Origin: a virus
Virus record (IMG/VR): IMGVR_UViG_3300021440_000017
Coordinates: 523-64,522 of that record
Reading direction: 5' to 3' (one strand)
Length of the DNA: 64,000 nt
Part shown: positions 6,072 through 59,230 of the stretch, piece by piece
Numbering within the stretch: the first letter of the stretch is position 1
How the letters are laid out: every line of letters starts with the position of its first letter
Position numbers and translations under genes: made by a program
The notes under the pieces: generated by a model
Told to the model about the DNA's origin: nothing
The model's database searches: none
Seen by the model: the letters and a program-made list of their open reading frames with translations, nothing else

Positions 6072-6498
6072 GAACGCCTCCGCAACGGTGGATCACGGAG
6101 TTCAGGAGCCCTGGCGCCGGCGTGAACCCATGCCGGACGTACCACGCACACAGTTCTTCCGTGCTCGGGTTCCCAACTCCGTAGCTGTTGATCGGACACC
6201 AAATGCCTGCGTTGTGCGCCGTGGCAAGTCCGATCACGGTGGTCAGCAGGTTCGAGCCGATGCCCTGACGGCGTGAGCCATGCGGTACGATGATCCGGTT
6301 GAAGAACCAGATGGGGCGGCTCCAGAACGGGTCTTCGAGGTCCAAGGGGAAGCCGAGTTCGGCATTCGATTGGTACACGCGCGTGGCGTCTTCACGGCCC
6401 GTCGTGTACACCGTGAGGTCGGCCGACGCGATGTGCGCGACACCGACTTTGACGTACGCGGAGACGCTGCGGTCTACGACAGAGGCGACGACTTTCAT
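6061..6498 (-). CDS. GNAT acetyltransferase
   Basis: Acetyl-CoA motif VPHGSRRQGIGSNLL and terminal WYVRHGF. Confidence 0.8.
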   Translation of the reverse strand: MKVVASVVDRSVSAYVKVGVAHIASADLTVYTTGREDATRVYQSNAELGFPLDLEDPFWSRPIWFFNRIIVPHGSRRQGIGSNLLTTVIGLATAHNAGIWCPINSYGVGNPSTEELCAWYVRHGFTPAPGLLNSVIHRCGGVHGV

Positions 6499-7517
6499 TG
6501 GATGCTCCCGAACGTCGCGGCCAAGAACGACAGCACATCGGCCTTGGCGCGTTCACGTGACTCCGGGTGGCCGCCTGCATGCCGCGTTGCCGGAGTCATG
6601 CACGCACGCAGGTACTCTTGCAACTCGTTGCCCCGGTACTGCTGGCCGGTCTTCCAGTTCACCGAAGTGCCGTAGGCGACATCGGTTTCCGTCGTGCAGT
6701 CCGTCATGGACTGCGCACGGAACTCGTGGTACGGCCCGAGAGCATCGAAGCCGTGGCCGGCGCCTGGGTACGTGACGAGCTTGAACCCGGCCTTGGGGTA
6801 GTATTTGCGCACGAGGTCTGCGCAGTGCTCGTTCGGCGTCCAGTCGTCGGCGTCCCCGTTGAGCATGAGCACCGGCGCGTCGTTGCGGTTGCGGGAGTCC
6901 ACAATCGCCGACGAGCACGAGAAGTACAGCGGAATGTGCGCGACGAACTTGCGCGTGGTCACCGCCTCGGCGAATCGGTTGATCCACGTGAGGTACGCGA
7001 CGGACGCGCCGCGCGAGAAGCCCATGATGGCGATGCGCTTCGCGTCAATCCGGGGGTGCGTCGCCAGCAGATCGAGAGCCTTCAGCGCGTCCACCGTCTG
7101 CGACGCCACGGACACGGAGAAGAAGTTGCCCGTGTACGTGTCACGCACGCCACGGCCCGTGTAGGTGTCGATCACGAACGCAGCGATGCCAGCAGCGTTC
7201 AGCGTGTCGGCCCACACGCGGAAGTCTTTGCGCAGCACGCCGTCGCTGCCGTGAACGATGATCACGGCGGGCACCTTCTGGCCGTCAGCGACCACCGGCA
7301 TCTTCAACGTGCCGTGCACGACGACGGGTTCACGCTGCGGGTACCGGAGTGCCTGGAAGTCCGGCACCGAGAACGAGTTGAAGTAGATGCGGCCTGCGGA
7401 CTCCGCGTCGAGCGCCGTGACCGGAGCAGTTGCCGGCGCGGGAGCCAGTTCGGGTTCGACGGCGTGTGCCATCACGGATGCCAGTGCAAGCACCAGCGAC
7501 ATGAGAATGCGGTTCAT
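6495..7517 (-). CDS. exported alpha/beta hydrolase (dienelactone hydrolase family, Ser nucleophile)
   Basis: Signal peptide MNRILMSLVLALASVMAHA; HG, GFSRG, NGDADDWTP and YPGAGHGFD motifs. Confidence 0.85.
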   Translation of the reverse strand: MNRILMSLVLALASVMAHAVEPELAPAPATAPVTALDAESAGRIYFNSFSVPDFQALRYPQREPVVVHGTLKMPVVADGQKVPAVIIVHGSDGVLRKDFRVWADTLNAAGIAAFVIDTYTGRGVRDTYTGNFFSVSVASQTVDALKALDLLATHPRIDAKRIAIMGFSRGASVAYLTWINRFAEAVTTRKFVAHIPLYFSCSSAIVDSRNRNDAPVLMLNGDADDWTPNEHCADLVRKYYPKAGFKLVTYPGAGHGFDALGPYHEFRAQSMTDCTTETDVAYGTSVNWKTGQQYRGNELQEYLRACMTPATRHAGGHPESRERAKADVLSFLAATFGSIQ

Positions 7518-7966
7518 AGCGGCCCTTCGTAGCCAAGGTGGATGGTGGTGGCCCACTCTGAGTGGGAGATTCGGAGTTGCTGTTGCGTCAGCGCAGCGAG
7601 GTCGCGCACGCTCGGCTCACGTGTGGTCACGGCGTCCCCGAGCATCAGCGCGGTACGAACTCGGTGGAGTTCGACACACAGGGGTTTGAAGCCCGGTGGT
7701 TTCACGGCGCGCAGCTTCTGTTCTTCGGCCGCGAGCGCGATTGCCAGCGCGCAGACGATCAGGCCCTTGCGCGCCGGCGTTACCGGTGGCCGGTGATCTT
7801 CGCGTTCGAGCCAGGCGCGAAGTTGGGTTTCGTGCAGTTCCAGGTACGGCGTGCCCGAGTTCACGTACACGTTGAGCATCGGCCCTACGAAGCAGATGCG
7901 GATGTCAGCCCTGGTGCCGTAGTGCATCAACAGCCACGTGTACAGTTGGGTAAGCAACTCGCTCAT
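7514..7966 (-). CDS. hypothetical protein
   Basis: GGAGG SD, ATGA overlaps. Confidence 0.6.
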   Translation of the reverse strand: MSELLTQLYTWLLMHYGTRADIRICFVGPMLNVYVNSGTPYLELHETQLRAWLEREDHRPPVTPARKGLIVCALAIALAAEEQKLRAVKPPGFKPLCVELHRVRTALMLGDAVTTREPSVRDLAALTQQQLRISHSEWATTIHLGYEGPL

Positions 7967-8364
7967 GGTGCCTCCACAGTGAATCGGGCTTCACGCTTCA
8001 ACAGCCGGAACAACTCGAACGCGAACTCTTGCTTGGACACGGCAGCCGTGCACGAGAGCAACAGGTGCAGCCCGGTGCATTCTTCACCATGGACCACCAC
8101 GGGCTCGTTGAGCACAGTGTTCGCGTAAGCGAGGTCGAACAGCGCGTCGTAGTCGAAATCGTACACGAGGCGCCCGGCGGAGAACTCGGGCTTCACTGCG
8201 AAGCTCAGCGTGCGGTACAGCCCGTTCATGATCGCGTGCTCGATGTTTGCGCGCGGCACCGTCGTCGCCACGTAGCTGGACATGGGTTTGCCTGCCAACG
8301 TGTGATGCCACCAGCGTGCGTCGAACTTCCCTTTGTTCACGGTGACCGTGATCTTCATCGTCAT
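7963..8364 (-). CDS. hypothetical protein
   Basis: AAGGAG SD, overlap packing. Confidence 0.6.
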   Translation of the reverse strand: MTMKITVTVNKGKFDARWWHHTLAGKPMSSYVATTVPRANIEHAIMNGLYRTLSFAVKPEFSAGRLVYDFDYDALFDLAYANTVLNEPVVVHGEECTGLHLLLSCTAAVSKQEFAFELFRLLKREARFTVEAP

Positions 8365-49657: not shown

Positions 49658-49974
49658 CCATTTCCTACAAGGGCGGTGGCATGCCGCTAACGACCGTGGC
49701 GCAAGCGCTGCACACGGTCGCTGCCGGAACCAAATCTGCGGTTCCCGTGAGTGTCCACGTCACGAACGTCGATAAGGAGTTCCGCCGACGGCTGAACTTC
49801 TGGCTGTCGATCACCGGAGGCCGCAACATGATTGTGGTCAACGGCGCCGAGGTCGAGTTCGGGGTCACCACGGTGTTCGCAGGTCCCGCACTGAACCCCG
49901 GCGAATCGCTGATGGCGTACGCCGAGACACTCGGGCTGCTGGTGGCAGCGTCGTCCACAGGAGAACAACGATGA
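49654..49974 (+). CDS. small beta-rich fibre-associated protein
   Basis: ATGA overlap; PALNPGESL.A. Confidence 0.55.
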   Translation: MTISYKGGGMPLTTVAQALHTVAAGTKSAVPVSVHVTNVDKEFRRRLNFWLSITGGRNMIVVNGAEVEFGVTTVFAGPALNPGESLMAYAETLGLLVAASSTGEQR

Positions 49975-50741
49975 AATTTCCGACCAAGCGCGTTGCGCTA
50001 CCGTACACGCTGAGTCCTGGCGACGAGGGTGTTCTCGAACTCCAGAACTCGGGCACGCTGTACGTGCCGGCAACGATTCCGTTGATGGTCCGGCGGTTCT
50101 CCGTGATCCTCATGAACCAGTCTGCTGGTTCCGTCACCCTGGAATCCCCGGTAGCGAATCTCAGCGTGCACGGGGCGACCGAGACAGCGACGATCGTGAT
50201 TCCAGCGGGGCGTGCCGTGCTGCTGGCCGCGCATGACGGCGTGGCACGGTGGTTGGTGGTGAACATCACCAACCTCTCCAGCGGTGCTCCAGTGGGCGCT
50301 GTTGGTGCTCCAGTAGGGGCTGTTGGTGGCTCTGGAACAGCGGTTCTCCAGTGGGGTCCGCAAGGTGGCGACACCATCAACGGAGTTTCCTGGCTGAGCA
50401 ACCCCACGCTGGCAAACGGGGGCACGTTCAACTACGTGCTACACGTGACGAATCCGAGTTCCTCGGCGGTCGGCTTCAACGGCGCTACCGCCGTGTACAG
50501 CAAAGCCACGGGGAACCCGCCACCGGGTGTCATCAACGTGCCTGCAGGTGGCAACATCACGGTCACTGGCAACATCACGGTGAACGGAGCAGTCGGCTCA
50601 CCAGGCTTCATCCGGCTGACGCTGCACGATCCGTTCGGCGCGGTACAGCGTTCGGACATCAACTTCGTTGTCGGCCCCGCACCCGTCGGAGCACCGCCGG
50701 TAGGCGCACCTCCGGTCGGTGGCACCGGCGTCGGCGACTGA
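49971..50741 (+). CDS. fibre-associated protein with GAPVG/GAPPVG repeats and Ig-like domain
   Basis: SGAPVGAVGAPVGAVGG and GPAPVGAPPVGAPPVGG. Confidence 0.6.
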   Translation: MKFPTKRVALPYTLSPGDEGVLELQNSGTLYVPATIPLMVRRFSVILMNQSAGSVTLESPVANLSVHGATETATIVIPAGRAVLLAAHDGVARWLVVNITNLSSGAPVGAVGAPVGAVGGSGTAVLQWGPQGGDTINGVSWLSNPTLANGGTFNYVLHVTNPSSSAVGFNGATAVYSKATGNPPPGVINVPAGGNITVTGNITVNGAVGSPGFIRLTLHDPFGAVQRSDINFVVGPAPVGAPPVGAPPVGGTGVGD

Positions 50742-51079: not shown

Positions 51080-51733
51080 ATGAAGCTGACGGTACCAAGG
51101 CTCAGCGAGTACGTCGGACCGGCGCTGGACTTCCCGAGAGAACCGATTCGGGTGTTCAACGTGTGGACGCCCGCGCGAGCCGCGATGATCCGTGCTGAAC
51201 TCGATGCCGTGCAATCCGAAGCTGAAGCCCTGGTGTTTCAGACGAACGGGAACGCAGGCTACGAGAACCCTGGGGTGCGCTCGTGCACGGTACTGAACCC
51301 CGGTGCGGAGCTACGGGCCTCGGTCACCAGCGATCTGCTCTCCGTGTTTCGTCCGTTCGTCCAGGCAGAACTGAAGATGCAGCGTGCCTCGTTGCACGGA
51401 GAAATCCAGTTCATCAGGTACCGCAAGCGGGATTCAGGGCGAGCCGATCACTTCGTGTTTCACGCGGATGCCGCGATCTTCGTGAACGGCCGATGGCTTG
51501 TGAACACGCCTGAGCGGCATCTGACGTTCAGTGCGTACGTCAACGACGACTTCTCAGGCGGAGACTTCGTGTTCAAGAACGTGGTCCACGATGGCGGAGT
51601 ACCAGTGACAGTGCAACCTCGACCAGGGCTCGCGCTGCTGTTTCCGTCGGACCCACGGTATGAGCACGCAGTGACGCCAATGCGTAAGGGCACTCGGTAC
51701 GCAATGGTCGGGTGGCTGACAATGGAGGCTTGA
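51080..51733 (+). CDS. 2OG-Fe(II) oxygenase, prolyl 4-hydroxylase-like
   Basis: QFIRY...HAD...RHLT.S.YVNDDFSGG...F...P..G.ALLFPS...HAVTP..KGTRY. Confidence 0.9.
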   Translation: MKLTVPRLSEYVGPALDFPREPIRVFNVWTPARAAMIRAELDAVQSEAEALVFQTNGNAGYENPGVRSCTVLNPGAELRASVTSDLLSVFRPFVQAELKMQRASLHGEIQFIRYRKRDSGRADHFVFHADAAIFVNGRWLVNTPERHLTFSAYVNDDFSGGDFVFKNVVHDGGVPVTVQPRPGLALLFPSDPRYEHAVTPMRKGTRYAMVGWLTMEA

Positions 51734-51755
51734 ACGGGTGCTGCGGCACCCTTCT

Positions 51756-52331
51756 TCATTTCCGGTGCTCGGGTAGCAAGAACACGTGACGGATCGCCAT
51801 CTCCTGGTCGAACATGGCAGTACCCATCACCTCGTCCCAGTAGAACGAGAACGCGGACACCGTGCGTGGAGGCAACTGTTCTTCCAGTGCCGACACGTAC
51901 CGTCCGGTCTTGCGGCGAGCAACGCGGTCCCACACGCGGTCGTGCTGCTCTGCGCGGGCCGCTGGCGTGTACGTGAAGTACCGGTAGTACCGCTTGGACT
52001 CAGCGTACTCGATGGCGGCATCCAGTAGGATGCCCAAGCCGTTCATCGGAAGCCCGTTGCTTGCCGTTTGATCGCTGATGACGAGAAGCAGCAACCAGGC
52101 ACGCTGGCTCGTCATCAGCTTCTGCAACAGGTAGCACCAGATGCGCCCCTCGCTGTCCACGAGGCCCCAGGTGCGGTACATTTCGTTCTCGGGCACTAGG
52201 TACTGGTTCTCCAGGTAGTGCCGTGCGTACATCGGGTTGGCGAGGGGCGCACCGTCTATGTCAGTTGGGTTGCCCTGGCGGATGCGCATAAGTTGGTCGG
52301 CATGTTCGGGGCGGAGTCGGAGTACGTTCAT
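51756..52331 (-). CDS. GNAT-fold-like protein
   Basis: ..LRPEH..QL..I; G.GILLD.AIEYAES pattern. Confidence 0.5.
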   Translation of the reverse strand: MNVLRLRPEHADQLMRIRQGNPTDIDGAPLANPMYARHYLENQYLVPENEMYRTWGLVDSEGRIWCYLLQKLMTSQRAWLLLLVISDQTASNGLPMNGLGILLDAAIEYAESKRYYRYFTYTPAARAEQHDRVWDRVARRKTGRYVSALEEQLPPRTVSAFSFYWDEVMGTAMFDQEMAIRHVFLLPEHRK

Positions 52332-53317
52332 GTGCGTCCTAGTGGGTGGTTGATTAGCGAGAGCAGATCGCGGTACGGGATCTCCGTAGACGACCAGCAA
52401 CGGAAGGGCATGCTCGTGCGCACGGCTTCGGACTCCGTGAACACCTGCGTGAGTTCACGTTCGTAGCCCGTGTACTTCACGCGAGGTCGCAGTCCATAGG
52501 CACGGTCTTTCACGAGGTCCGAACTGTGAACCCGACGGTTGTACTGGCCGGCGACGAGGCGGACGAGAAACGGGTTCGCCAGATACGCAGCCCATAGCTC
52601 CAGACTGTACTGGTAGAACGACGGGATGACCCTGTGGTTGTCGGTCCAGTGCAGGTACTTCTGGAACGCAGGGAACCGCTCATGGTCGTGGAACATGAAC
52701 GTGCCCTTGCTGTAGTCTCCGTCGATCTGCGCTTGAAGGTCCGGCACGTAGTTGACCTCGGGTTCGTTGAACCCGGACACGAGGGCACCCGGTGTGTCGC
52801 GCACAGCGACGTACCACGGTGCGTAGCCCACATGCTTGCACTGGCTTACACGCGCGAGTTCACGAGCCTCACCGCTGTCGATCAGCACCTGCATGTCGAT
52901 GTCGAAAAATCGGTAGTCGAGCCCGAGCTTGTGCGCGAGTCGCAATGCCGGCACCAGATCGTGACGATTGCCTCCGCGCGCATGCCGGATCAGCAACGTA
53001 GTGAACGGGACACCAGCGTCCAAGAACCTCCGGACCATGTACTCGGAATCAAGGCCACCGCTGAGCATCAGCACCAGGTCTTCGCCGTGGAACCTGTCGG
53101 CGATAGCCCGAGCGTTGAGTACCGCTTCGTCACGTAGAGTACCAAGAGCCCTGGTGAGCCCTCGATTGATCTTCATCACGTACGTTGCGTCCTCGTGCAC
53201 ACGGAACAAGCCGGGGAACCCGGCGTACCCGTAAGCGAACCACGAGTCGGCAGTGAACCTCGGTGTGGGAACCAAGTTCAGGCGCACCCACGCTGCGACG
53301 AGTTCGTCATTGTCCAT
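52328..53317 (-). CDS. PP-loop adenine nucleotide alpha-hydrolase family protein
   Basis: LVLMLSGGLDSE. Confidence 0.7.
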   Translation of the reverse strand: MDNDELVAAWVRLNLVPTPRFTADSWFAYGYAGFPGLFRVHEDATYVMKINRGLTRALGTLRDEAVLNARAIADRFHGEDLVLMLSGGLDSEYMVRRFLDAGVPFTTLLIRHARGGNRHDLVPALRLAHKLGLDYRFFDIDMQVLIDSGEARELARVSQCKHVGYAPWYVAVRDTPGALVSGFNEPEVNYVPDLQAQIDGDYSKGTFMFHDHERFPAFQKYLHWTDNHRVIPSFYQYSLELWAAYLANPFLVRLVAGQYNRRVHSSDLVKDRAYGLRPRVKYTGYERELTQVFTESEAVRTSMPFRCWSSTEIPYRDLLSLINHPLGRT

Positions 53318-53972
53318 CGGGGTCTCTTTGTGGAAGCGTCACTGGTCCGTGATACATGCGCACGACGTTCAGCGTCTGAGGATGGACCTCGACGAACGAG
53401 TTCTCCAGGCCGAAGTGCACCACATGGTTGTACACGAGGACCGCCAGTATATGAGCGAGCACCACGGGGCGTACGGACTCTGCGGAGTCCGGCATCGGAA
53501 ACCCGAGCCGTGCGTCCCACACCTGCACGTACCCTTGCGGGCTCGTGTTGAACCGGAACACACGGCCGAACGCGACCTCAGCGTCGGTCACGATCTCCTG
53601 GGTGTCCACGAGAATGATCGACGCTCGTTCTCGCGGGACGTCCACGTTAAAGAACGGGGACAGCAGGTCGTGTACGACGGAGTTTTCGGTAAATACAGAC
53701 ACGTCGTCCACTTGGTTCCCGTGCCACTTCGCATCTGGTGTCACGACGGGGGCACACACAGCGGTCATCTGCGTGTGGTACTCGGGGCCTGGTGTCCAGC
53801 CGGACGCTACTGATGTCAGCAGCGACCGGTACGCTTCATGCACAGGCACCTGACCACGCAGGGTCTTTCGCAGGATCTCAGTCGGAGACAGCGCGAACAA
53901 CACACGGGCGCCGCCATGCGTGATTTCGACGACGGTGTACCCCAGGGCTTCTTTCTCAGCTTTCCAGGTCAT
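53307..53972 (-). CDS. hypothetical protein
   Basis: GGAGG SD. Confidence 0.65.
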   Translation of the reverse strand: MTWKAEKEALGYTVVEITHGGARVLFALSPTEILRKTLRGQVPVHEAYRSLLTSVASGWTPGPEYHTQMTAVCAPVVTPDAKWHGNQVDDVSVFTENSVVHDLLSPFFNVDVPRERASIILVDTQEIVTDAEVAFGRVFRFNTSPQGYVQVWDARLGFPMPDSAESVRPVVLAHILAVLVYNHVVHFGLENSFVEVHPQTLNVVRMYHGPVTLPQRDPDGQ

Positions 53973-54020
53973 CTGGTCCTCCAGTAGTTCACAACTGATT
54001 TACCCACGTTCGGAGTTCAC

Positions 54021-54803
54021 ATGTACGTCTCGGATCATGCACGTCGCATTCTCATTCCCATTCATCTGCTGTTCGCCGCAGTGACGGCCGCCTGGGTGTA
54101 CAACGGGGCTCACGTACCGTGGCCGGCAGCAGTTCTCGCCGTCGCATGGTGGACGCTGCTCTCTGGGCTTGGCATCGCCGTGGGATTCCACCGGTACTTC
54201 AGCCATCTGGCGTTTCCGGCCAAGCCGTGGGCGCGCAAGCTCATGCTCGGCGCCGGAACACTCGCTGGGCAGGGGTCACCGATCTTTTGGGTGGCGTTGC
54301 ACATGGGCTACCACCATCCGCATTCGGACGAACGGAAAGACGTGCACTCCCCGGTGCACGGCATCTGGTCTGCGTACATGGGGTGGATGATCCGGCTACG
54401 GCCTGACGATGTGAGTCTCAAGTACGCGGTGCGGTTGCTCAGGGACCCGCTGATCGTCACCGTGCATCAGCGGTACTACACGGTGTTCTGGCTGGCGTAC
54501 GCAGCGATACTCGGGATCGCAGCTACAGCAGGGCTACCGTACGTCATGGCCGTGATGACCGCGCTTATCGTCGCCGTACACCAGGAGTGCGCGGTGAACG
54601 TGCTGAACCACAGTCGCTGGTTCGGTTACGTGAACTACTACACGGGAGACAACAGCGTGAACAACGTGGTCACTGGCCTCTTGTGTTGGGGCCAGGGGTG
54701 GCACAACAACCACCATCAGTTGCCTGGCCGAGCGAACTTCGGTGTCCGATGGTTCGAGTACGACCCGACACGGTTGCTGATTCCCCTGGTTCGCGCACGC
54801 TGA
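54021..54803 (+). CDS. membrane fatty-acid desaturase (delta-9/OLE1-like)
   Basis: His boxes HRYFSH, HMGYHH, HNNHH; SD...D.HSP..G; VN.LNH; TM helices. Confidence 0.9.
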   Translation: MYVSDHARRILIPIHLLFAAVTAAWVYNGAHVPWPAAVLAVAWWTLLSGLGIAVGFHRYFSHLAFPAKPWARKLMLGAGTLAGQGSPIFWVALHMGYHHPHSDERKDVHSPVHGIWSAYMGWMIRLRPDDVSLKYAVRLLRDPLIVTVHQRYYTVFWLAYAAILGIAATAGLPYVMAVMTALIVAVHQECAVNVLNHSRWFGYVNYYTGDNSVNNVVTGLLCWGQGWHNNHHQLPGRANFGVRWFEYDPTRLLIPLVRAR

Positions 54804-54813
54804 GGACACGATC

Positions 54814-55887
54814 ATGAACGTAAACCCCGTTGAGCAGTTCCCCACCGCCGTGCTCTGGAAAGACCTGATGAGTCCCGAGGGCATTGTCGCCATGTCCAAG
54901 ACACTTGGTCCCGGCACCGTGTTCTTTCTCAATGCGGAACCTCGTGACTACGAGGAGTTCCGTGCGCTCGGCATCGACGTGCGCCCGCGGTCACAGGTGT
55001 CTACGTCGCTGGTCACCGTGGAACGACCAGGGCAGACGCAGATAACGGCGACTACGAGCGCGGCGTCCGCAGTCATGGGCAAGTCGTGGTCGCTGATCTG
55101 CGACGCCGGAGTCCGCACGTTCGTCGTCGAGAACGGCAAGGTGTGGTCCTCAGTGTGCAAACAGCGCAAGCTCATGGGTGTGCCCGACAAGTTCGAGATT
55201 TCTGATTACCCGACACGGTGCATGCGCAACGCCTGCGACTACCACTTCGACGCGCTGGCTCCGAAGCACGGCAGCGAGAACCTGGAACTCCCGAACTTCA
55301 GGAAGTTCGAGGTGCCCACGGAACTCGCATCGACAGTGGAAGACGTGCGCGTAGCGCTGCTCACGAAGCTGCAACGTGAGGAAGCAGGGTACGCAACAGG
55401 CGTCAATCGTCAACGGTATCCGAACACGCCGTTCAAGACCACGAGGTCAGTGCTACTGCGCAAGCACTGCAACATCCGGGCGTACAACTGGCAAGCGAAC
55501 CTGCAAGGGAGCTACGAAGACGTGGAGTGCGCGGATGATCCCACGTGGATGACTCCGTACTCGGAAGCAGGTGTATTCGCTCGTGAACTGCTGCCGAAGA
55601 TCGTCGGGGTCGAGTGGCAAGACATCGGCCAGATCATCCTGTCGAAGCTGCCGGCCGGAGAGGTCATCACCACGCACTGGGACGCCGGCTACTACTTCGA
55701 GTTCTACAACCGGTACCACTTCGTCCTCGATACGAACGACGACTGTGACTTCATGATCCGGGACGAGACAACGAACATGAAGGTTGGGAGCATCTACCGC
55801 ATCAACAACATCGTCCGGCACTCAGTGGCAAACCGGGGCACCACGGACCGTTATCACGTGGTCGTGGACGCGAGGTACCGTCGATGA
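54814..55887 (+). CDS. protein with C-terminal Asp/Asn beta-hydroxylase-like 2OG domain
   Basis: ITTHWD...RYH.VL...G.IYRINN..RHSVAN...DRYHVVVD. Confidence 0.8.
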   Translation: MNVNPVEQFPTAVLWKDLMSPEGIVAMSKTLGPGTVFFLNAEPRDYEEFRALGIDVRPRSQVSTSLVTVERPGQTQITATTSAASAVMGKSWSLICDAGVRTFVVENGKVWSSVCKQRKLMGVPDKFEISDYPTRCMRNACDYHFDALAPKHGSENLELPNFRKFEVPTELASTVEDVRVALLTKLQREEAGYATGVNRQRYPNTPFKTTRSVLLRKHCNIRAYNWQANLQGSYEDVECADDPTWMTPYSEAGVFARELLPKIVGVEWQDIGQIILSKLPAGEVITTHWDAGYYFEFYNRYHFVLDTNDDCDFMIRDETTNMKVGSIYRINNIVRHSVANRGTTDRYHVVVDARYRR

Positions 55888-57461
55888 CTGACGCAGTGGT
55901 GTTCGCGGGGTACTCCCGTGCGGCAATCGGGGTGAAGCCAGCGGGAGCACACATCATCGCCAACGTGTTTCGCCGTGCAGGACTCACTGCTGTCGTCATA
56001 GACATGTGCACGGTGCTCACCCGGGAGCAACGGCAGAAGCTGTTGCGTTCGCACGTGACGCCGTACACGAAGTTCGTGTGCCTGAGCACCACGTTGTTTG
56101 GGCTTGCCGGCGACATGGTTACGGAGATCGAGGAGGTGGATGCGAGCATGACCACGATGTTCGGAACCCTGCGGCGTCGCGCGCCGGCAGCGACGTTCAT
56201 CATAGGCGGGTCGAAGGTCACAGCGGGTGACCGCACGACCATGGACTTCGACTACGGAGTGATCGGGCAAGGCGAAACGACGTTGCTGGCAATCGTGAAC
56301 CACGTGCTGTACGGTGATCCCCTGGTCACGGACTTCACGGTGAACAACGTGCGGTACGTCAGCGACAAGACCTACCCGTACGGGACGTACAACACGGATG
56401 ATCTCCTGGAGTTCACGGCGGATGACGGAGTAGCTCCGGGAGAGACGCTACCACTGGAGTTCGGTCGCGGCTGCGTGTTCAAGTGCAGCTACTGCATGTA
56501 CGCGCTGACCGGCAAGGAGTTTGGTGACTACACGAAGCCCGCGAAGCTGCTGGCCGATGCCATGCGCCGGAATTACGAGCGCTTCGGGACCACCAGGTAC
56601 GTGCTGACCGACGACACGGTGAACGACAGCCTGGAGAAGGCCCGCGTGTGGGAAACGGCAGTGTCCATGCTGGACTTCCCGGTTGAGTTCGGCGGGTACA
56701 TGAGGCTCGAACTGTTCCACAAGTACCCGGAACTCATCGAGTTGTACGCGCGCACGGGGCTGCGCGCGGTGAACTTCGGCGTCGAAACCTTCAACAAGGT
56801 CGCGGGCTCAGCCGTCGGCAAGGGGTTCGGAGAACGCGGCCGTGACACGCTGCTGGCGCTGCGTGCTGCCTGGGGTGACAACGTACACGTGTCCACGAAC
56901 TTCATCATCGGATTGCCGACGGAGACAGAGGAGCAGATACGAGCAGATGCCGAGTGGCTCCGAAGAACTCGTGCCTGTCACTCTGCCACGTACTACAAGC
57001 TGCTGGTGGCCCGTGACCGGTCACAGCAGGGATTCGGACCGGAGTACGCCGGCTACTACCGCGAGACGGACGAGCCGTTGCCTCCGCAACTGGACTGGAC
57101 AGCGTACCTGCGTCGGTACATCAACTGGAAGTCCCCGTGCATGTCGTTGGCGCAAGCTCATCGGTTGCAAGTGGACCTGAACACCAAGTGGGAGAACTGG
57201 CGGTGGAGTCTCGACGCGACCGTTAGCGCCTTCGGCTTCATGGCGCTGCGTCGCTGGTACTCTCAGCACGAGTTGACGCACAGCACGCGCGTAGGCTACG
57301 CCGAGCACCTACGGGAAATCGCGGAACTCCGGCGTGACACGTACGCGGCACTCATGGCCGAAGTGCCCTCGACAAGGGGTAACCCGATACGTGTCACGCC
57401 CAAGATCGTGCCTGCTTCGTCGCTGGCGTTCGTGAACAAGTGGGACAAGCGAAAGGTCTGA
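55884..57461 (+). CDS. radical SAM enzyme with N-terminal B12-binding-like domain
   Basis: EFGRGCVFKCSYC (CxxxCxxC), DDTVN, FGVET, FIIGLPTET; N-terminal FIIGG. Confidence 0.85.
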   Translation: MTDAVVFAGYSRAAIGVKPAGAHIIANVFRRAGLTAVVIDMCTVLTREQRQKLLRSHVTPYTKFVCLSTTLFGLAGDMVTEIEEVDASMTTMFGTLRRRAPAATFIIGGSKVTAGDRTTMDFDYGVIGQGETTLLAIVNHVLYGDPLVTDFTVNNVRYVSDKTYPYGTYNTDDLLEFTADDGVAPGETLPLEFGRGCVFKCSYCMYALTGKEFGDYTKPAKLLADAMRRNYERFGTTRYVLTDDTVNDSLEKARVWETAVSMLDFPVEFGGYMRLELFHKYPELIELYARTGLRAVNFGVETFNKVAGSAVGKGFGERGRDTLLALRAAWGDNVHVSTNFIIGLPTETEEQIRADAEWLRRTRACHSATYYKLLVARDRSQQGFGPEYAGYYRETDEPLPPQLDWTAYLRRYINWKSPCMSLAQAHRLQVDLNTKWENWRWSLDATVSAFGFMALRRWYSQHELTHSTRVGYAEHLREIAELRRDTYAALMAEVPSTRGNPIRVTPKIVPASSLAFVNKWDKRKV

Positions 57462-57462
57462 C

Positions 57463-58017
57463 ATGGATTTCGGAGCGGACTTCCGATTGCTGGAAGCAGA
57501 AGTACCGGCACGGTTGTGCCTTCGTGCGGTTGCCGAGATACAAGAGCGTGCAGCCGCTGGGGACTTCGACAACGTAGACAACCGCGCGCGGCATCGGCTG
57601 TATCCCGAGTTGGCCGAAGCGGATGTCGTGTACCTACGAGCCCCTGTACTTCAGGGACAGCCCGGTGTGCGCGGCGACATACTGGACTGTGAGAACACGC
57701 CGGCGGTGGCGAAGTTCCCTTGGTGCTGGGTTGCACTGAGAACGGCGCTACCAGACGCCGTGTTCGGTCGTGTGATGGTCTCCCGTGTGGACGGTCCCGG
57801 TCGAGTAGCCACGCACGTGGACGCTGGTGCCATGGCCGTGCAACACCGAAGGCACCATGTGTGTCTCACAGTGGAAGACGCGGAGTTCACGGTGGGTACC
57901 ACGACAGTGAGGATGGAGCCGGGGTCCGTGTGGGAGATCAACAACCGACGGCCGCACTCGGTCACGAACCACAAAGGGCTACGGTTGCACCTGATCGCTG
58001 ACGTGGTTCCACGCTAA
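57463..58017 (+). CDS. Asp/Asn beta-hydroxylase-like 2OG-Fe(II) oxygenase
   Basis: VATHVD...RHHVCL...PGSVWEINN.RPHSVTN...RLHLIAD. Confidence 0.85.
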   Translation: MDFGADFRLLEAEVPARLCLRAVAEIQERAAAGDFDNVDNRARHRLYPELAEADVVYLRAPVLQGQPGVRGDILDCENTPAVAKFPWCWVALRTALPDAVFGRVMVSRVDGPGRVATHVDAGAMAVQHRRHHVCLTVEDAEFTVGTTTVRMEPGSVWEINNRRPHSVTNHKGLRLHLIADVVPR

Positions 58018-58371: not shown

Positions 58372-58400
58372 AGGAGCCTACCGTGCAAGGTTCACCTGTA

Positions 58401-58748
58401 ATGGACTTCCTTGCCGGCGTTCTCAACTACACGGACCCCGCGACGTTCGGGGCCGGAATCACCGGAGCGTCGATCTACTACGTGCTGTTCGCGGATCGCG
58501 GTCGCTGGGCAAACATCGCGTTGTTCCTAATCTCGATACCCGTAGCGCTGCACGTGTCTCCGATCTTCGCGGTGAAGACCGGGCTGCACGGAAGCGGTGT
58601 TGCGCTGTTCACTGGAGCACTAGGACTCATGTTCATCGAGAAGCTCGCGTTCTACACGAGGCATCCGTCGGCGTTCATCAAGACGCTGCGCGATGCACGT
58701 GCTGCGTTACGACACGACACAGGAGGCGGTGATGACGCTCGACCCTAG
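58401..58748 (+). CDS. holin-like three-TM membrane protein
   Basis: Three hydrophobic helices, basic C-terminus; TAATTTCA motif about 380 nt upstream. Confidence 0.5.
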   Translation: MDFLAGVLNYTDPATFGAGITGASIYYVLFADRGRWANIALFLISIPVALHVSPIFAVKTGLHGSGVALFTGALGLMFIEKLAFYTRHPSAFIKTLRDARAALRHDTGGGDDARP

Positions 58749-59130
58749 CATGATTACGGAGACGTACATGGTCATCGTGACGATCACACACGTGCTATTC
58801 GCAGTCATCGTCCTGCGGCTCTACCAGTTGGTGAAAGCTGCGGGGTTCGGAGAGCAATCGTGGGCACTCAGGATCGGGGTGATCCTCATCGTCGCCGGAA
58901 CGCTGACGCTGGCGATGATCCCGACGACGTTGCCAGCGGTAGCCACCGTCAAGGACGTGAGCATGGACGTGCTCATCTGGTCGCTGCTGCGAACCCTCGG
59001 GCTCATCATCGTGTGCTCACTGATCTTCACGAACATCGCGCGGTTCAAGCCGTGGGACGGACACAGCGAGCGACGCACGGGTCTGACAAGACCGGCGACG
59101 CTTGACGACCGAGTGAACTCCCGCCACTGA
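58732..59130 (+). CDS. three-TM membrane protein (holin/antiholin-like)
   Basis: Hydrophobic helices; C-terminal WDG..ERR; AGGAGG SD. Confidence 0.5.
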   Translation: MTLDPSMITETYMVIVTITHVLFAVIVLRLYQLVKAAGFGEQSWALRIGVILIVAGTLTLAMIPTTLPAVATVKDVSMDVLIWSLLRTLGLIIVCSLIFTNIARFKPWDGHSERRTGLTRPATLDDRVNSRH

Positions 59131-59175: not shown

Positions 59176-59230
59176 CACGCCCAAATCGAGTGGGTAAATG
59201 CGGTTACGGATCAACCGCTTTGGAGCATTC

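Follow-up and report, generated by a model that had tools for sequence, protein, structure and literature searches.

Seven neighboring genes (g2 to g8) in a 64,000-nucleotide stretch of viral DNA, hereafter the window (positions 523 to 64,522 of IMG/VR record IMGVR_UViG_3300021440_000017), may together encode a single pathway for tailoring a hydrophobic acyl group and attaching it by an amide bond, a reading that we favor while giving it slightly less than an even chance of being correct. They encode a GNAT-fold protein (g2), a PP-loop enzyme (g3), a lineage-specific protein (g4), a membrane desaturase (g5), two AspH-type cupins (g6 and g8), and a radical S-adenosylmethionine (SAM) enzyme (g7), and they lie next to a prolyl-4-hydroxylase (P4H)-type gene (g1). 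The enzyme classes and the genetic linkage are established, and the mechanism that we propose is inferred from the known chemistry of the families.

A recurrent cassette in viral and cellular genomes

The preliminary description of the window, made from the sequence without database searches, had suggested that g1 to g8 form a biosynthetic pathway rather than isolated auxiliary genes, an idea that would lose its basis if the genes did not co-occur in other phages. Hidden Markov models (HMMs) built iteratively from the window proteins were applied to related loci, and the genes proved to travel together in many unrelated viral contigs. Within 10 kb around the radical SAM gene (84 loci), AspH-type genes were found in 43/84 loci, PP-loop genes in 25/84, desaturase genes in 22/84, and g2 homologues in 18/84; none of these families occurred in 59 control loci (0.86 Mb) around distant planctomycete-type radical SAM genes. 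Because of the divergence within the full PP-loop alignment, the DNA scan was made with a subset alignment, yielding a PP-loop-centered sample of 80 viral loci among at least 180 that exist. There, g2 was present in 74 of the 80 loci, every time directly downstream of the PP-loop gene; a desaturase gene adjoined this pair in 72, and AspH-type and radical SAM genes were present in 62 and 24, respectively. Directly 5′ of the PP-loop gene, 36 of the 80 loci have a gene for a 72- to 74-amino-acid (aa) protein that carries the LDSL(D/E)xVEL motif (DSL) of carrier proteins, and the copy in locus L199 passes the Pfam PP-binding cutoff (21.7 versus 20.8 bits). The contiguous orders were carrier protein-PP-loop-g2-desaturase in 30 loci, PP-loop-g2-desaturase in 16, and desaturase-PP-loop-g2 in 16. 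The median intergenic distance within the cassette is −4 nucleotides (nt), a spacing that indicates translational coupling.

The PP-loop protein of the window is only 22 to 24% identical to its cassette homologues, and the unit is nevertheless kept, also in rearranged orders, which speaks for functional coupling and not just common descent. Three proteins form the fixed core, namely, the PP-loop enzyme, the GNAT protein, and the desaturase; an AspH-type cupin usually accompanies them, and the radical SAM enzyme is a frequent accessory. Recurrence and coupling thus support a linked pathway for g2, g3, g5, the AspH type, and g7 but not for g1, and the eight-gene set as first described contains a recurrent core that is smaller than eight genes.

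Other partners recur as well. A 182-aa, weakly GNAT-like protein is encoded ahead of the carrier protein in 53 loci, and TauD and PhyH dioxygenases, ATP-grasp proteins, and a 390-aa PP-loop paralogue are further recurrent neighbors. SPASM radical SAM proteins occur in 34 related loci, and other radical SAM proteins are also recurrent. Copy numbers can be high. About ten desaturase genes surround a single radical SAM gene in L036 (2828-15211), seven PP-loop genes surround a single radical SAM gene in both L058 (1567-15003) and L086 (2154-12096), and five AspH genes are present in each of L054 and L063; in L087 (4759-16649), from a gammaproteobacterial metagenome-assembled genome (MAG), six class-B-like radical SAM paralogues of about 500 aa each lie in tandem. 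We also observed an IscU/NifU-like Fe-S scaffold in 19 loci and a glutaredoxin-like protein in 19 loci (in L169 at 7946-8335 and 2623-2853; also L170, L173, and L175), and these proteins plausibly support nearby Fe-S and di-iron enzymes.

The cassette is not confined to viruses. In a Bdellovibrionales MAG (L090, 1-21140), two radical SAM genes, a PP-loop gene, two desaturase genes, g2, an AspH gene, and the gene for the 182-aa GNAT protein are found with genes for a short-chain dehydrogenase/ketoreductase and a split transketolase. Genes for TerC, LysR, superoxide dismutase, and EamA come next, indicating that the context is a genuine chromosome.

The core pair, g3 and g2

The PP-loop motif of g3 is intact (S86GGLDS), and SGGxDS is nearly invariant across 29 homologues. 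The fold of its synthetase domain is nearer to asparagine synthetase B (AsnB) and beta-lactam synthetase than to other PP-loop families, and the protein consists of the synthetase domain only, with no N-terminal Ntn glutaminase(-like) domain. A weak QueC-like PHROG match was also obtained. We conclude that g3 is an amide synthetase of the AsnB/beta-lactam synthetase type, a refinement of the PP-loop assignment made initially.

No Pfam match was found for g2. Its ESM Atlas model (predicted template modeling [pTM] score, 0.69) gave template modeling scores of 0.65 to 0.70 to many GNAT N-acetyltransferase clusters, its Atlas features scored 0.96 to viral clusters, and a profile search of the PDB returned weak GNAT matches (E values of 0.006 to 0.16). 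An alternative TTG start at 52400 would extend g2 to 214 aa. The PP-loop and GNAT-like calls for g3 and g2, both invisible to Pfam, are therefore borne out by profile and fold, and every enzyme class named in the preliminary description held when Pfam, profile, fold, and motif evidence were considered.

The desaturase, the cupins, and the radical SAM enzyme

g5 matches Pfam FA_desaturase at 50.5 bits (gathering cutoff [GA], 29.7) and has three His boxes (H57RYFSH, H94MGYHH, and H228NNHH) and four transmembrane-like segments. g6 and g8 match Pfam Asp_Arg_Hydrox at 49.0 bits (residues 261 to 353) and 29.3 bits, respectively (GA, 22.6), and both carry HxD with a downstream His (H288-W-D in g6 and H118-V-D in g8). 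Together with the HxD of g1 (H128), these motifs substantiate the three 2-oxoglutarate (2OG) oxygenases recognized at the outset. A comparison of g6 and g8 with NCBIfam at an E value of 0.1 gave no match, including to the LpxO-type models, and neither protein has a transmembrane-like segment.

Ahead of its cupin, g6 has a four-Cys domain (residues ~92 to 153; window positions 55087-55272) that aligns with the C-terminal twitch/SPASM-like domain of viral radical SAM proteins of 300 to 370 aa (hhalign E value of 1e-4, probability of 57%, 62 columns). The Atlas structure matches of g6 are these same viral radical SAM proteins, and a word search with the N-terminal half of g6 found no homologues. 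The domain may be an Fe-S/redox module or a shared substrate-binding module. We also noted stand-alone domains of this type in viral proteins of 110 to 130 aa in the Atlas.

g7 matches Pfam Radical_SAM at 55.7 bits, and its C197xxxC201xxC204 motif is invariant across 33 homologues. The B12-binding match (24.3 bits, E value of 2.9e-5) lies below the GA of 32.1, and S68 and G108-G109, which are conserved, would fit the SxL and GG motifs. A single-sequence search of the PDB with g7 gave no match, and a profile search gave only generic class-B/MiaB-type matches (TokK, AprD4, and CysS). The top NCBIfam match of g7 was TIGR04072, the “lipid biosynthesis B12/radical SAM” family, at 82 bits against a cutoff of 360; membership of that family was dropped, and the planctomycete proteins reached by the g7 profile are KedN5- and PhpK-like. 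Scanning viral contigs with the single g7 sequence found no match, but an alignment-based scan succeeded and identified at least 483 relatives in IMG/VR; some 30 metagenomic homologues are 37 to 47% identical to g7.

Among 50,697 GenBank phage records, there was no near or protein-level match to the region, to g7, or to g3, and a search with g5 returned only Pelagibacter phage Mosig and a record labeled “Acinetobacter phage MD-2021a.” Beside the tail fibers of Mosig lie an AspH-desaturase pair, a GNAT gene, TauD, and MoaA-like radical SAM genes. In the other record (L167; CAKLQH020000002.1, 46237-64866), trpB/trpC, btuB, baeSR, and acyl-CoA dehydrogenase genes surround the desaturase, and the entry looks like a bacterial chromosome rather than a phage.

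Conserved and exchanged parts in the lineage of the window phage

Two homologues of g4 were found, on L249 and L250/L251, which belong to phages whose fiber and baseplate proteins are 44 to 65% identical to those of the window phage. The order of fiber genes, g1, g4-g3-g2, divergent desaturase, and AspH-type gene is kept in these relatives, with identities in L249/L250 of 37 to 39% for g4, 52 to 54% for g3, 52 to 56% for g2, and 61 to 64% for g5; g6 is 43.5% identical in L249. L250, the nearest relative, lacks g7 and g8, which within this lineage occur in the window phage only, and has in their place genes for a GNAT protein, a 187-aa protein, and a 360-aa protein (6324-7406) in which SGGIDS can be seen by eye. 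The radical SAM enzyme and the second cupin are therefore an accessory arm, which appears to have been swapped as a block between the window phage and L250, and g1 and g4 are lineage specific. In most cassette phages the cassette is built around an acyl-carrier-type protein, whereas the window phage has none in 83 kb.

g4 occupies the position that the small GNAT and carrier proteins hold in other phages. Its structural model matches McbB, LynD/TruD, PaaA, and MccB, and the AFDB clusters that it matches are named thiazole/oxazole-modified microcin (TOMM) cyclodehydratase, SagC, and leader-peptide-binding protein. On the basis of this model we tentatively regard g4 as a putative E1-like (ThiF/MoeB-type) noncatalytic scaffold. 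Two other identities were considered and set aside: a diverged copy of the 182-aa GNAT-like protein (hhalign probability, 0.1%) and an N-acyl homoserine lactone synthase or FeeM, for which the Atlas feature score of 0.81 is at noise level and the fold search gave no support.

Genomic context and g1

The window comprises bases 523-64522 of an 83.1-kb IMG/VR viral contig with a CheckV completeness of 34%. A 229-kb ENA metagenome contig represents the same phage, which is a jumbo phage of about 230 kb with a GC content of 61%. The features of the region are listed in Table 1. The GC content at third codon positions is 0.73 to 0.80 for all eight open reading frames (ORFs), a coding-type value, and independent gene calls on the ENA contig give the same eight genes; the ORF coordinates and these calls confirm the divergent eight-gene arrangement beside the fiber genes that had been described. 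The genes are densely packed, with overlaps of 11 nt between g4 and g3 and 4 nt each between g3 and g2 and between g6 and g7. On the 5′ side is a plus-strand structural block with a Phage_tail_fib match in the window and GPW_gp25 and Phage_base_V matches in a syntenic relative. On the 3′ side (58383-59130) are two small proteins, multiple-transmembrane by eye and putatively holin-like according to the preliminary description, that are 56% and 31% identical to their L250 counterparts.

Table 1. Features of the g1 to g8 region (window coordinates)
Feature	Position	Strand	Description	Remarks
g1	51080..51733	+	Prolyl-4-hydroxylase-type 2OG-Fe(II) oxygenase, 217 aa	Final gene of fiber operon
Terminator-like GC hairpin with T-rich tail	51736..51751	+		In the 22-nt convergent g1/g2 gap
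g2	51756..52331	−	GNAT-fold protein, 191 aa	
g3	52328..53317	−	Stand-alone AsnB-type PP-loop amide synthetase, 329 aa	No glutaminase domain
g4	53307..53972	−	Lineage-specific protein, 221 aa	Tentatively an E1-like (ThiF/MoeB-type) noncatalytic scaffold
Divergent intergenic region, 48 nt	53973..54020			Holds GTGGGTAAAT at 53998-54007 (−)
g5	54021..54803	+	Integral-membrane His-box (di-iron) fatty acid desaturase family, 260 aa	
g6	54814..55887	+	Two-domain protein, 357 aa	N-terminal four-Cys twitch/SPASM-like domain and C-terminal AspH-type cupin
g7	55884..57461	+	Class-B-like radical SAM protein, 525 aa	Putative N-terminal Rossmann (cobalamin-type) domain
g8	57463..58017	+	Small AspH-type cupin 2OG oxygenase, 184 aa	

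The exact 10-mer GTGGGTAAAT occurs in two copies only, the one listed in Table 1 and another at 59190-59199 (+). They lie 26 to 32 nt 5′ of the g4-g3-g2 operon (26 nt for g4) and of a PurD-like operon, each pointing along its operon, and the element may be a phage promoter element. When one mismatch was allowed, the match count was reached by 13 of 100 shuffles and is not significant. A search of the region for sigma-70-like promoters found none.

g1 probably stands apart from the g2-g8 pathway, since it ends the fiber operon and has no counterpart in the wider cassette. It matches Pfam 2OG-FeII_Oxy_3 at 49.3 bits (GA, 27) and PHROG 61, and its HxD...H triad is present (H128-A-D and the downstream His in YEHAV). 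It is syntenic in L249 and L250 (48 to 53% identity), and no homologue was found among 160 cassette loci. The gene has the same orientation as the fiber genes, and the terminator-like hairpin lies directly 3′ of it; terminator-like sites in the region are not more numerous than in shuffled sequence, and the hairpin is a lead based on position only. On the genomic evidence, g1 more likely hydroxylates proline-rich linkers of the fiber proteins than takes part in the cassette. As to those linkers, the neighboring 256-aa fiber protein (49971-50741) has proline-rich GAPVGAVGAPVG and GAPPVGAPPVG tracts, GSPAPTGSPPTG tracts are found at corresponding positions in L250 (14140-14916 and 13241-14131), and each of the three related phages has a P4H-type oxygenase gene in the same operon, one or two genes 3′ of the linker proteins.

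A possible acyl-amide pathway and its alternatives

In the pathway that we favor, an acyl or acyl-amino-acid intermediate would be held as a thioester, in most related phages on their own 72- to 74-aa carrier protein and in the window phage on host acyl carrier protein (ACP) or coenzyme A (CoA) or on whatever partner the putatively E1-like g4 binds. The substrates of membrane His-box enzymes are hydrophobic acyl compounds, and g5 would desaturate the chain or oxidize it otherwise. The cupins of g6 and g8 would hydroxylate the acyl chain, the four-Cys domain of g6 perhaps supplying electrons in the manner of rubredoxin in polyyne cassettes, and g7 would modify an unactivated carbon, most likely by methylation. 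g3 would adenylate a carboxylate and form an amide, and g2 would move the acyl group onto an amine acceptor. The product, formed in the infected cell, would then be an N-acyl amide (a lipoamino acid, aminolipid, or lipopeptide) with one or two amide bonds. It could plausibly serve to change the envelope and thereby block, for instance, superinfection or adsorption to debris, or it could be a bioactive compound.

Several observations weigh against this pathway. We know of no AsnB-type enzyme that loads a carrier protein. The 83-kb record, out of a genome of about 230 kb, encodes neither a carrier protein (Pfam PP-binding and phage carrier HMM) nor an AMP-binding/ANL ligase, none of the eight genes has a Pfam AMP-binding match, and no thioesterase family turned up among the proteins scanned. 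The lipid-type NCBIfam match of g7 is far under its cutoff, and unrelated class-B enzymes score alike. The best fold matches of g4 are leader-peptide-binding E1-like proteins of peptide pathways, and AspH, P4H, SPASM, and class-B radical SAM enzymes are typical modifiers of peptides too. Many of the 80 PP-loop-centered loci, moreover, are from related phages (at least 51% identity to the query), which means that the counts do not reflect independent events.

The main rival, which the E1-like fold predicted for g4 and the peptide-type oxygenases keep alive, is that the cassette modifies a ribosomal peptide or protein (a small precursor, a virion protein, or a tail fiber protein) to give a lipopeptide or lipidated protein, although we consider it decidedly less probable than the acyl-amide pathway. 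g4 would then be a leader- or protein-binding scaffold; g3 would make an isopeptide bond, amide, or lactam, as lasso cyclases do; AspH and P4H would hydroxylate Asp, Asn, or Pro; g7 would C-methylate; g2 would N-acylate; and the desaturase would edit the attached lipid. The matches of the g4 model to McbB, LynD/TruD, PaaA, MccB, and leader-peptide-binding clusters fit this scheme, as do the presence of lasso cyclases and beta-lactam synthetase in the fold class of g3, the wealth of SPASM radical SAM (34 loci), ATP-grasp, TauD, and PhyH proteins in related loci, and the position of the cluster beside fiber genes in the window phage, L250, and the cultured Pelagibacter phage Mosig. Ribosomal peptides that are lipidated by GNAT enzymes are also known (PMC8784127). 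A search of the 80 loci for precursors among small-ORF families, however, found only the carrier protein, the IscU-like, glutaredoxin-like, and PAAR-like proteins, and spurious antisense ORFs, and no leader peptidase, YcaO, or LanM turned up among the scanned proteins. Somewhat less probable again is a role for the cassette in remodeling existing lipid A, lipopolysaccharide (LPS), capsule, or aminolipids, through LpxO/OlsC-like acyl hydroxylation, acyl-chain desaturation, and amidation of uronic or amino acid carboxylates, which would alter receptor display or membrane properties. The Asp_Arg_Hydrox family takes in LpxO and OlsC, and amidotransferases of the asparagine synthetase type occur in O-antigen pathways. 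In Mosig, a sugar aminotransferase and a carbamoyltransferase lie beside the AspH-desaturase pair, and pelagimyophage “host recognition clusters” by the tail fibers hold LPS-type glycosyltransferases together with radical SAM cassettes (PMC7029224); in Ruegeria, aminolipids are reported to affect phage attachment (PMC9938194). The absence of an NCBIfam LpxO-type match and of a transmembrane segment in g6 and g8 and of any glycosyltransferase within the window cluster speaks against such editing, and the presence of two GNAT proteins and of a dedicated carrier points toward synthesis, not alteration of a premade lipid.

That the genes are independent and merely gathered in a hypervariable island by the tail genes, with the desaturase serving membrane fluidity, a function that has been suggested for cyanophage desaturases, and the oxygenases acting on separate targets, seems unlikely. 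Copy numbers and accessory genes do vary greatly among phages, the radical SAM gene and g8 are missing from the nearest relative, and cyanophages have both desaturases described as stand-alone auxiliary metabolic genes (PMC5776448) and tandem dioxygenase arrays (PMC2938197). Coresidence in an island does not explain the adjacency of PP-loop, g2, and desaturase genes with −4-nt overlaps in 62 of the 80 loci, kept through rearrangement and deep divergence. We regard as very improbable a role in hypermodification of nucleic acids, in which the cluster would extend a neighboring operon of the 7-deazaguanine type and g3, the radical SAM enzyme, and the 2OG enzymes would act on DNA or tRNA bases. 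Such enzymes are found in base-modification pathways, GTGGGTAAAT lies 5′ of both the g4 operon and the downstream PurD-like/QueC operon, and there is the weak QueC-like match of g3; but g3 is clearly of the AsnB type and not of the QueC or TtuA type, no known base modification involves a membrane desaturase or an ACP-type carrier, and the cassette occurs in other phages that have no QueC genes nearby.

Implications

Auxiliary genes of phages are usually read singly, whereas here we describe a compact multienzyme unit of four to eight genes that follows the logic of a biosynthetic gene cluster. It is found in at least 180 to 480 viral contigs, from T4-like pelagiphage relatives to phages of 200 to 500 kb, and also in predatory bacteria. 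A broader proposal, for which we have somewhat less confidence than for the acyl-amide pathway itself, is that hundreds of aquatic phages, the window phage among them, encode a self-contained pathway of the natural product type leading, during infection, to a new class of amide-linked, unsaturated, hydroxylated or methylated lipids or lipopeptides, used for rewiring the host envelope or as bioactive molecules. The kit for such a pathway, proposed with the same reserve, would be a carrier protein or E1-like scaffold, an AsnB-type synthetase, GNAT proteins, desaturases, AspH enzymes, and a class-B radical SAM enzyme. If the products are indeed lipids or lipopeptides, viruses would be an unrecognized source of membrane-active chemistry in lakes and oceans, and the constant place of the genes by the tail and baseplate genes would tie that chemistry to host recognition or superinfection control. 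The combination of an asparagine-synthetase-type enzyme, a carrier protein, and a membrane desaturase is undocumented and would represent new biochemistry.

Relation to known systems

Phage islands with some of these genes have been described. In pelagimyophages, the “host recognition cluster” by the tail fibers is reported to include radical SAM cassettes along with AspH and desaturase genes, no role being assigned to them (PMC7029224). Cyanophages carry dioxygenase genes in tandem arrays, as described by Iyer and colleagues (PMC2938197), and their desaturase genes were treated by Roitman and colleagues as standing alone (PMC5776448). Like the window cluster, these islands lie beside fiber or baseplate genes and contain radical SAM, AspH, desaturase, or 2OG oxygenase genes. 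The island papers (PMC7029224 and PMC2938197), however, give gene content only, the PP-loop/GNAT/desaturase/carrier unit being unrecognized there, and the window phage (61% GC, ~230 kb) belongs to another lineage than those T4-like phages. Our literature search found no published description of this unit, which is likewise absent from papers on cyanophage desaturases, Shemin-pathway phages, and boreal jumbophages, in agreement with the initial remark that no pathway with this set of enzymes was known.

Aminolipid systems (OlsB, OlsC/LpxO-type enzymes, and OlsE) resemble the cassette in their GNAT-like N-acyltransferase logic, their AspH-family acyl hydroxylases, and their membrane di-iron oxidase, and a product of the aminolipid type would be a membrane compound in which an acyl chain is amide-linked to an amino acid. 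In contrast to these systems, g2 has no OlsB (Acetyltransf_5) match, no OlsA-type O-acyltransferase is present, and g5 is an FA_desaturase rather than an FA_hydroxylase; conversely, aminolipid systems have no counterpart of the PP-loop enzyme, the carrier protein, or the radical SAM enzyme. Pathways for ribosomally synthesized and posttranslationally modified peptides (RiPPs), represented by the selidamides and goadvionins, McbB of microcin B17, and lasso cyclases, share with the cassette GNAT acyl transfer, an AsnB-fold amide-forming enzyme, and, on the tentative reading of g4, an E1-like scaffold; their tailoring enzymes include hydroxylases and class-B radical SAM methylases. In goadvionin and selidamide biosynthesis, GNAT enzymes acylate amines with ACP-bound or fatty acyl groups (PMC8784127). 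g3 differs from lasso cyclases in having no counterpart of their N-terminal domain, and the membrane desaturase of the cassette is not part of these RiPP pathways.

In the JamABC pathway to a terminal alkyne and the cay and pgn polyyne clusters, His-box desaturases act on chains tethered to a dedicated carrier; a ligase loads the chains, a thioesterase releases them, and rubredoxin assists (PMC9828172; bioRxiv 10.1101/291195). The phage relatives with a carrier protein-PP-loop-g2-desaturase order and runs of desaturase genes likewise combine a small carrier, an ATP-using activating enzyme, and one or more membrane His-box desaturases. Where JamABC, cay, and pgn have an ANL fatty acyl-AMP ligase, the phage cassette has an amide synthetase of the AsnB PP-loop type, and it further includes AspH cupins and a class-B-like radical SAM enzyme. 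GNAT proteins take the place of the thioesterase, therefore suggesting transfer to an amine rather than hydrolysis. By analogy, the cassette may be a kind of thiotemplate-type acyl tailoring system that differs from the known ones in its AsnB-type enzyme and its GNAT proteins.

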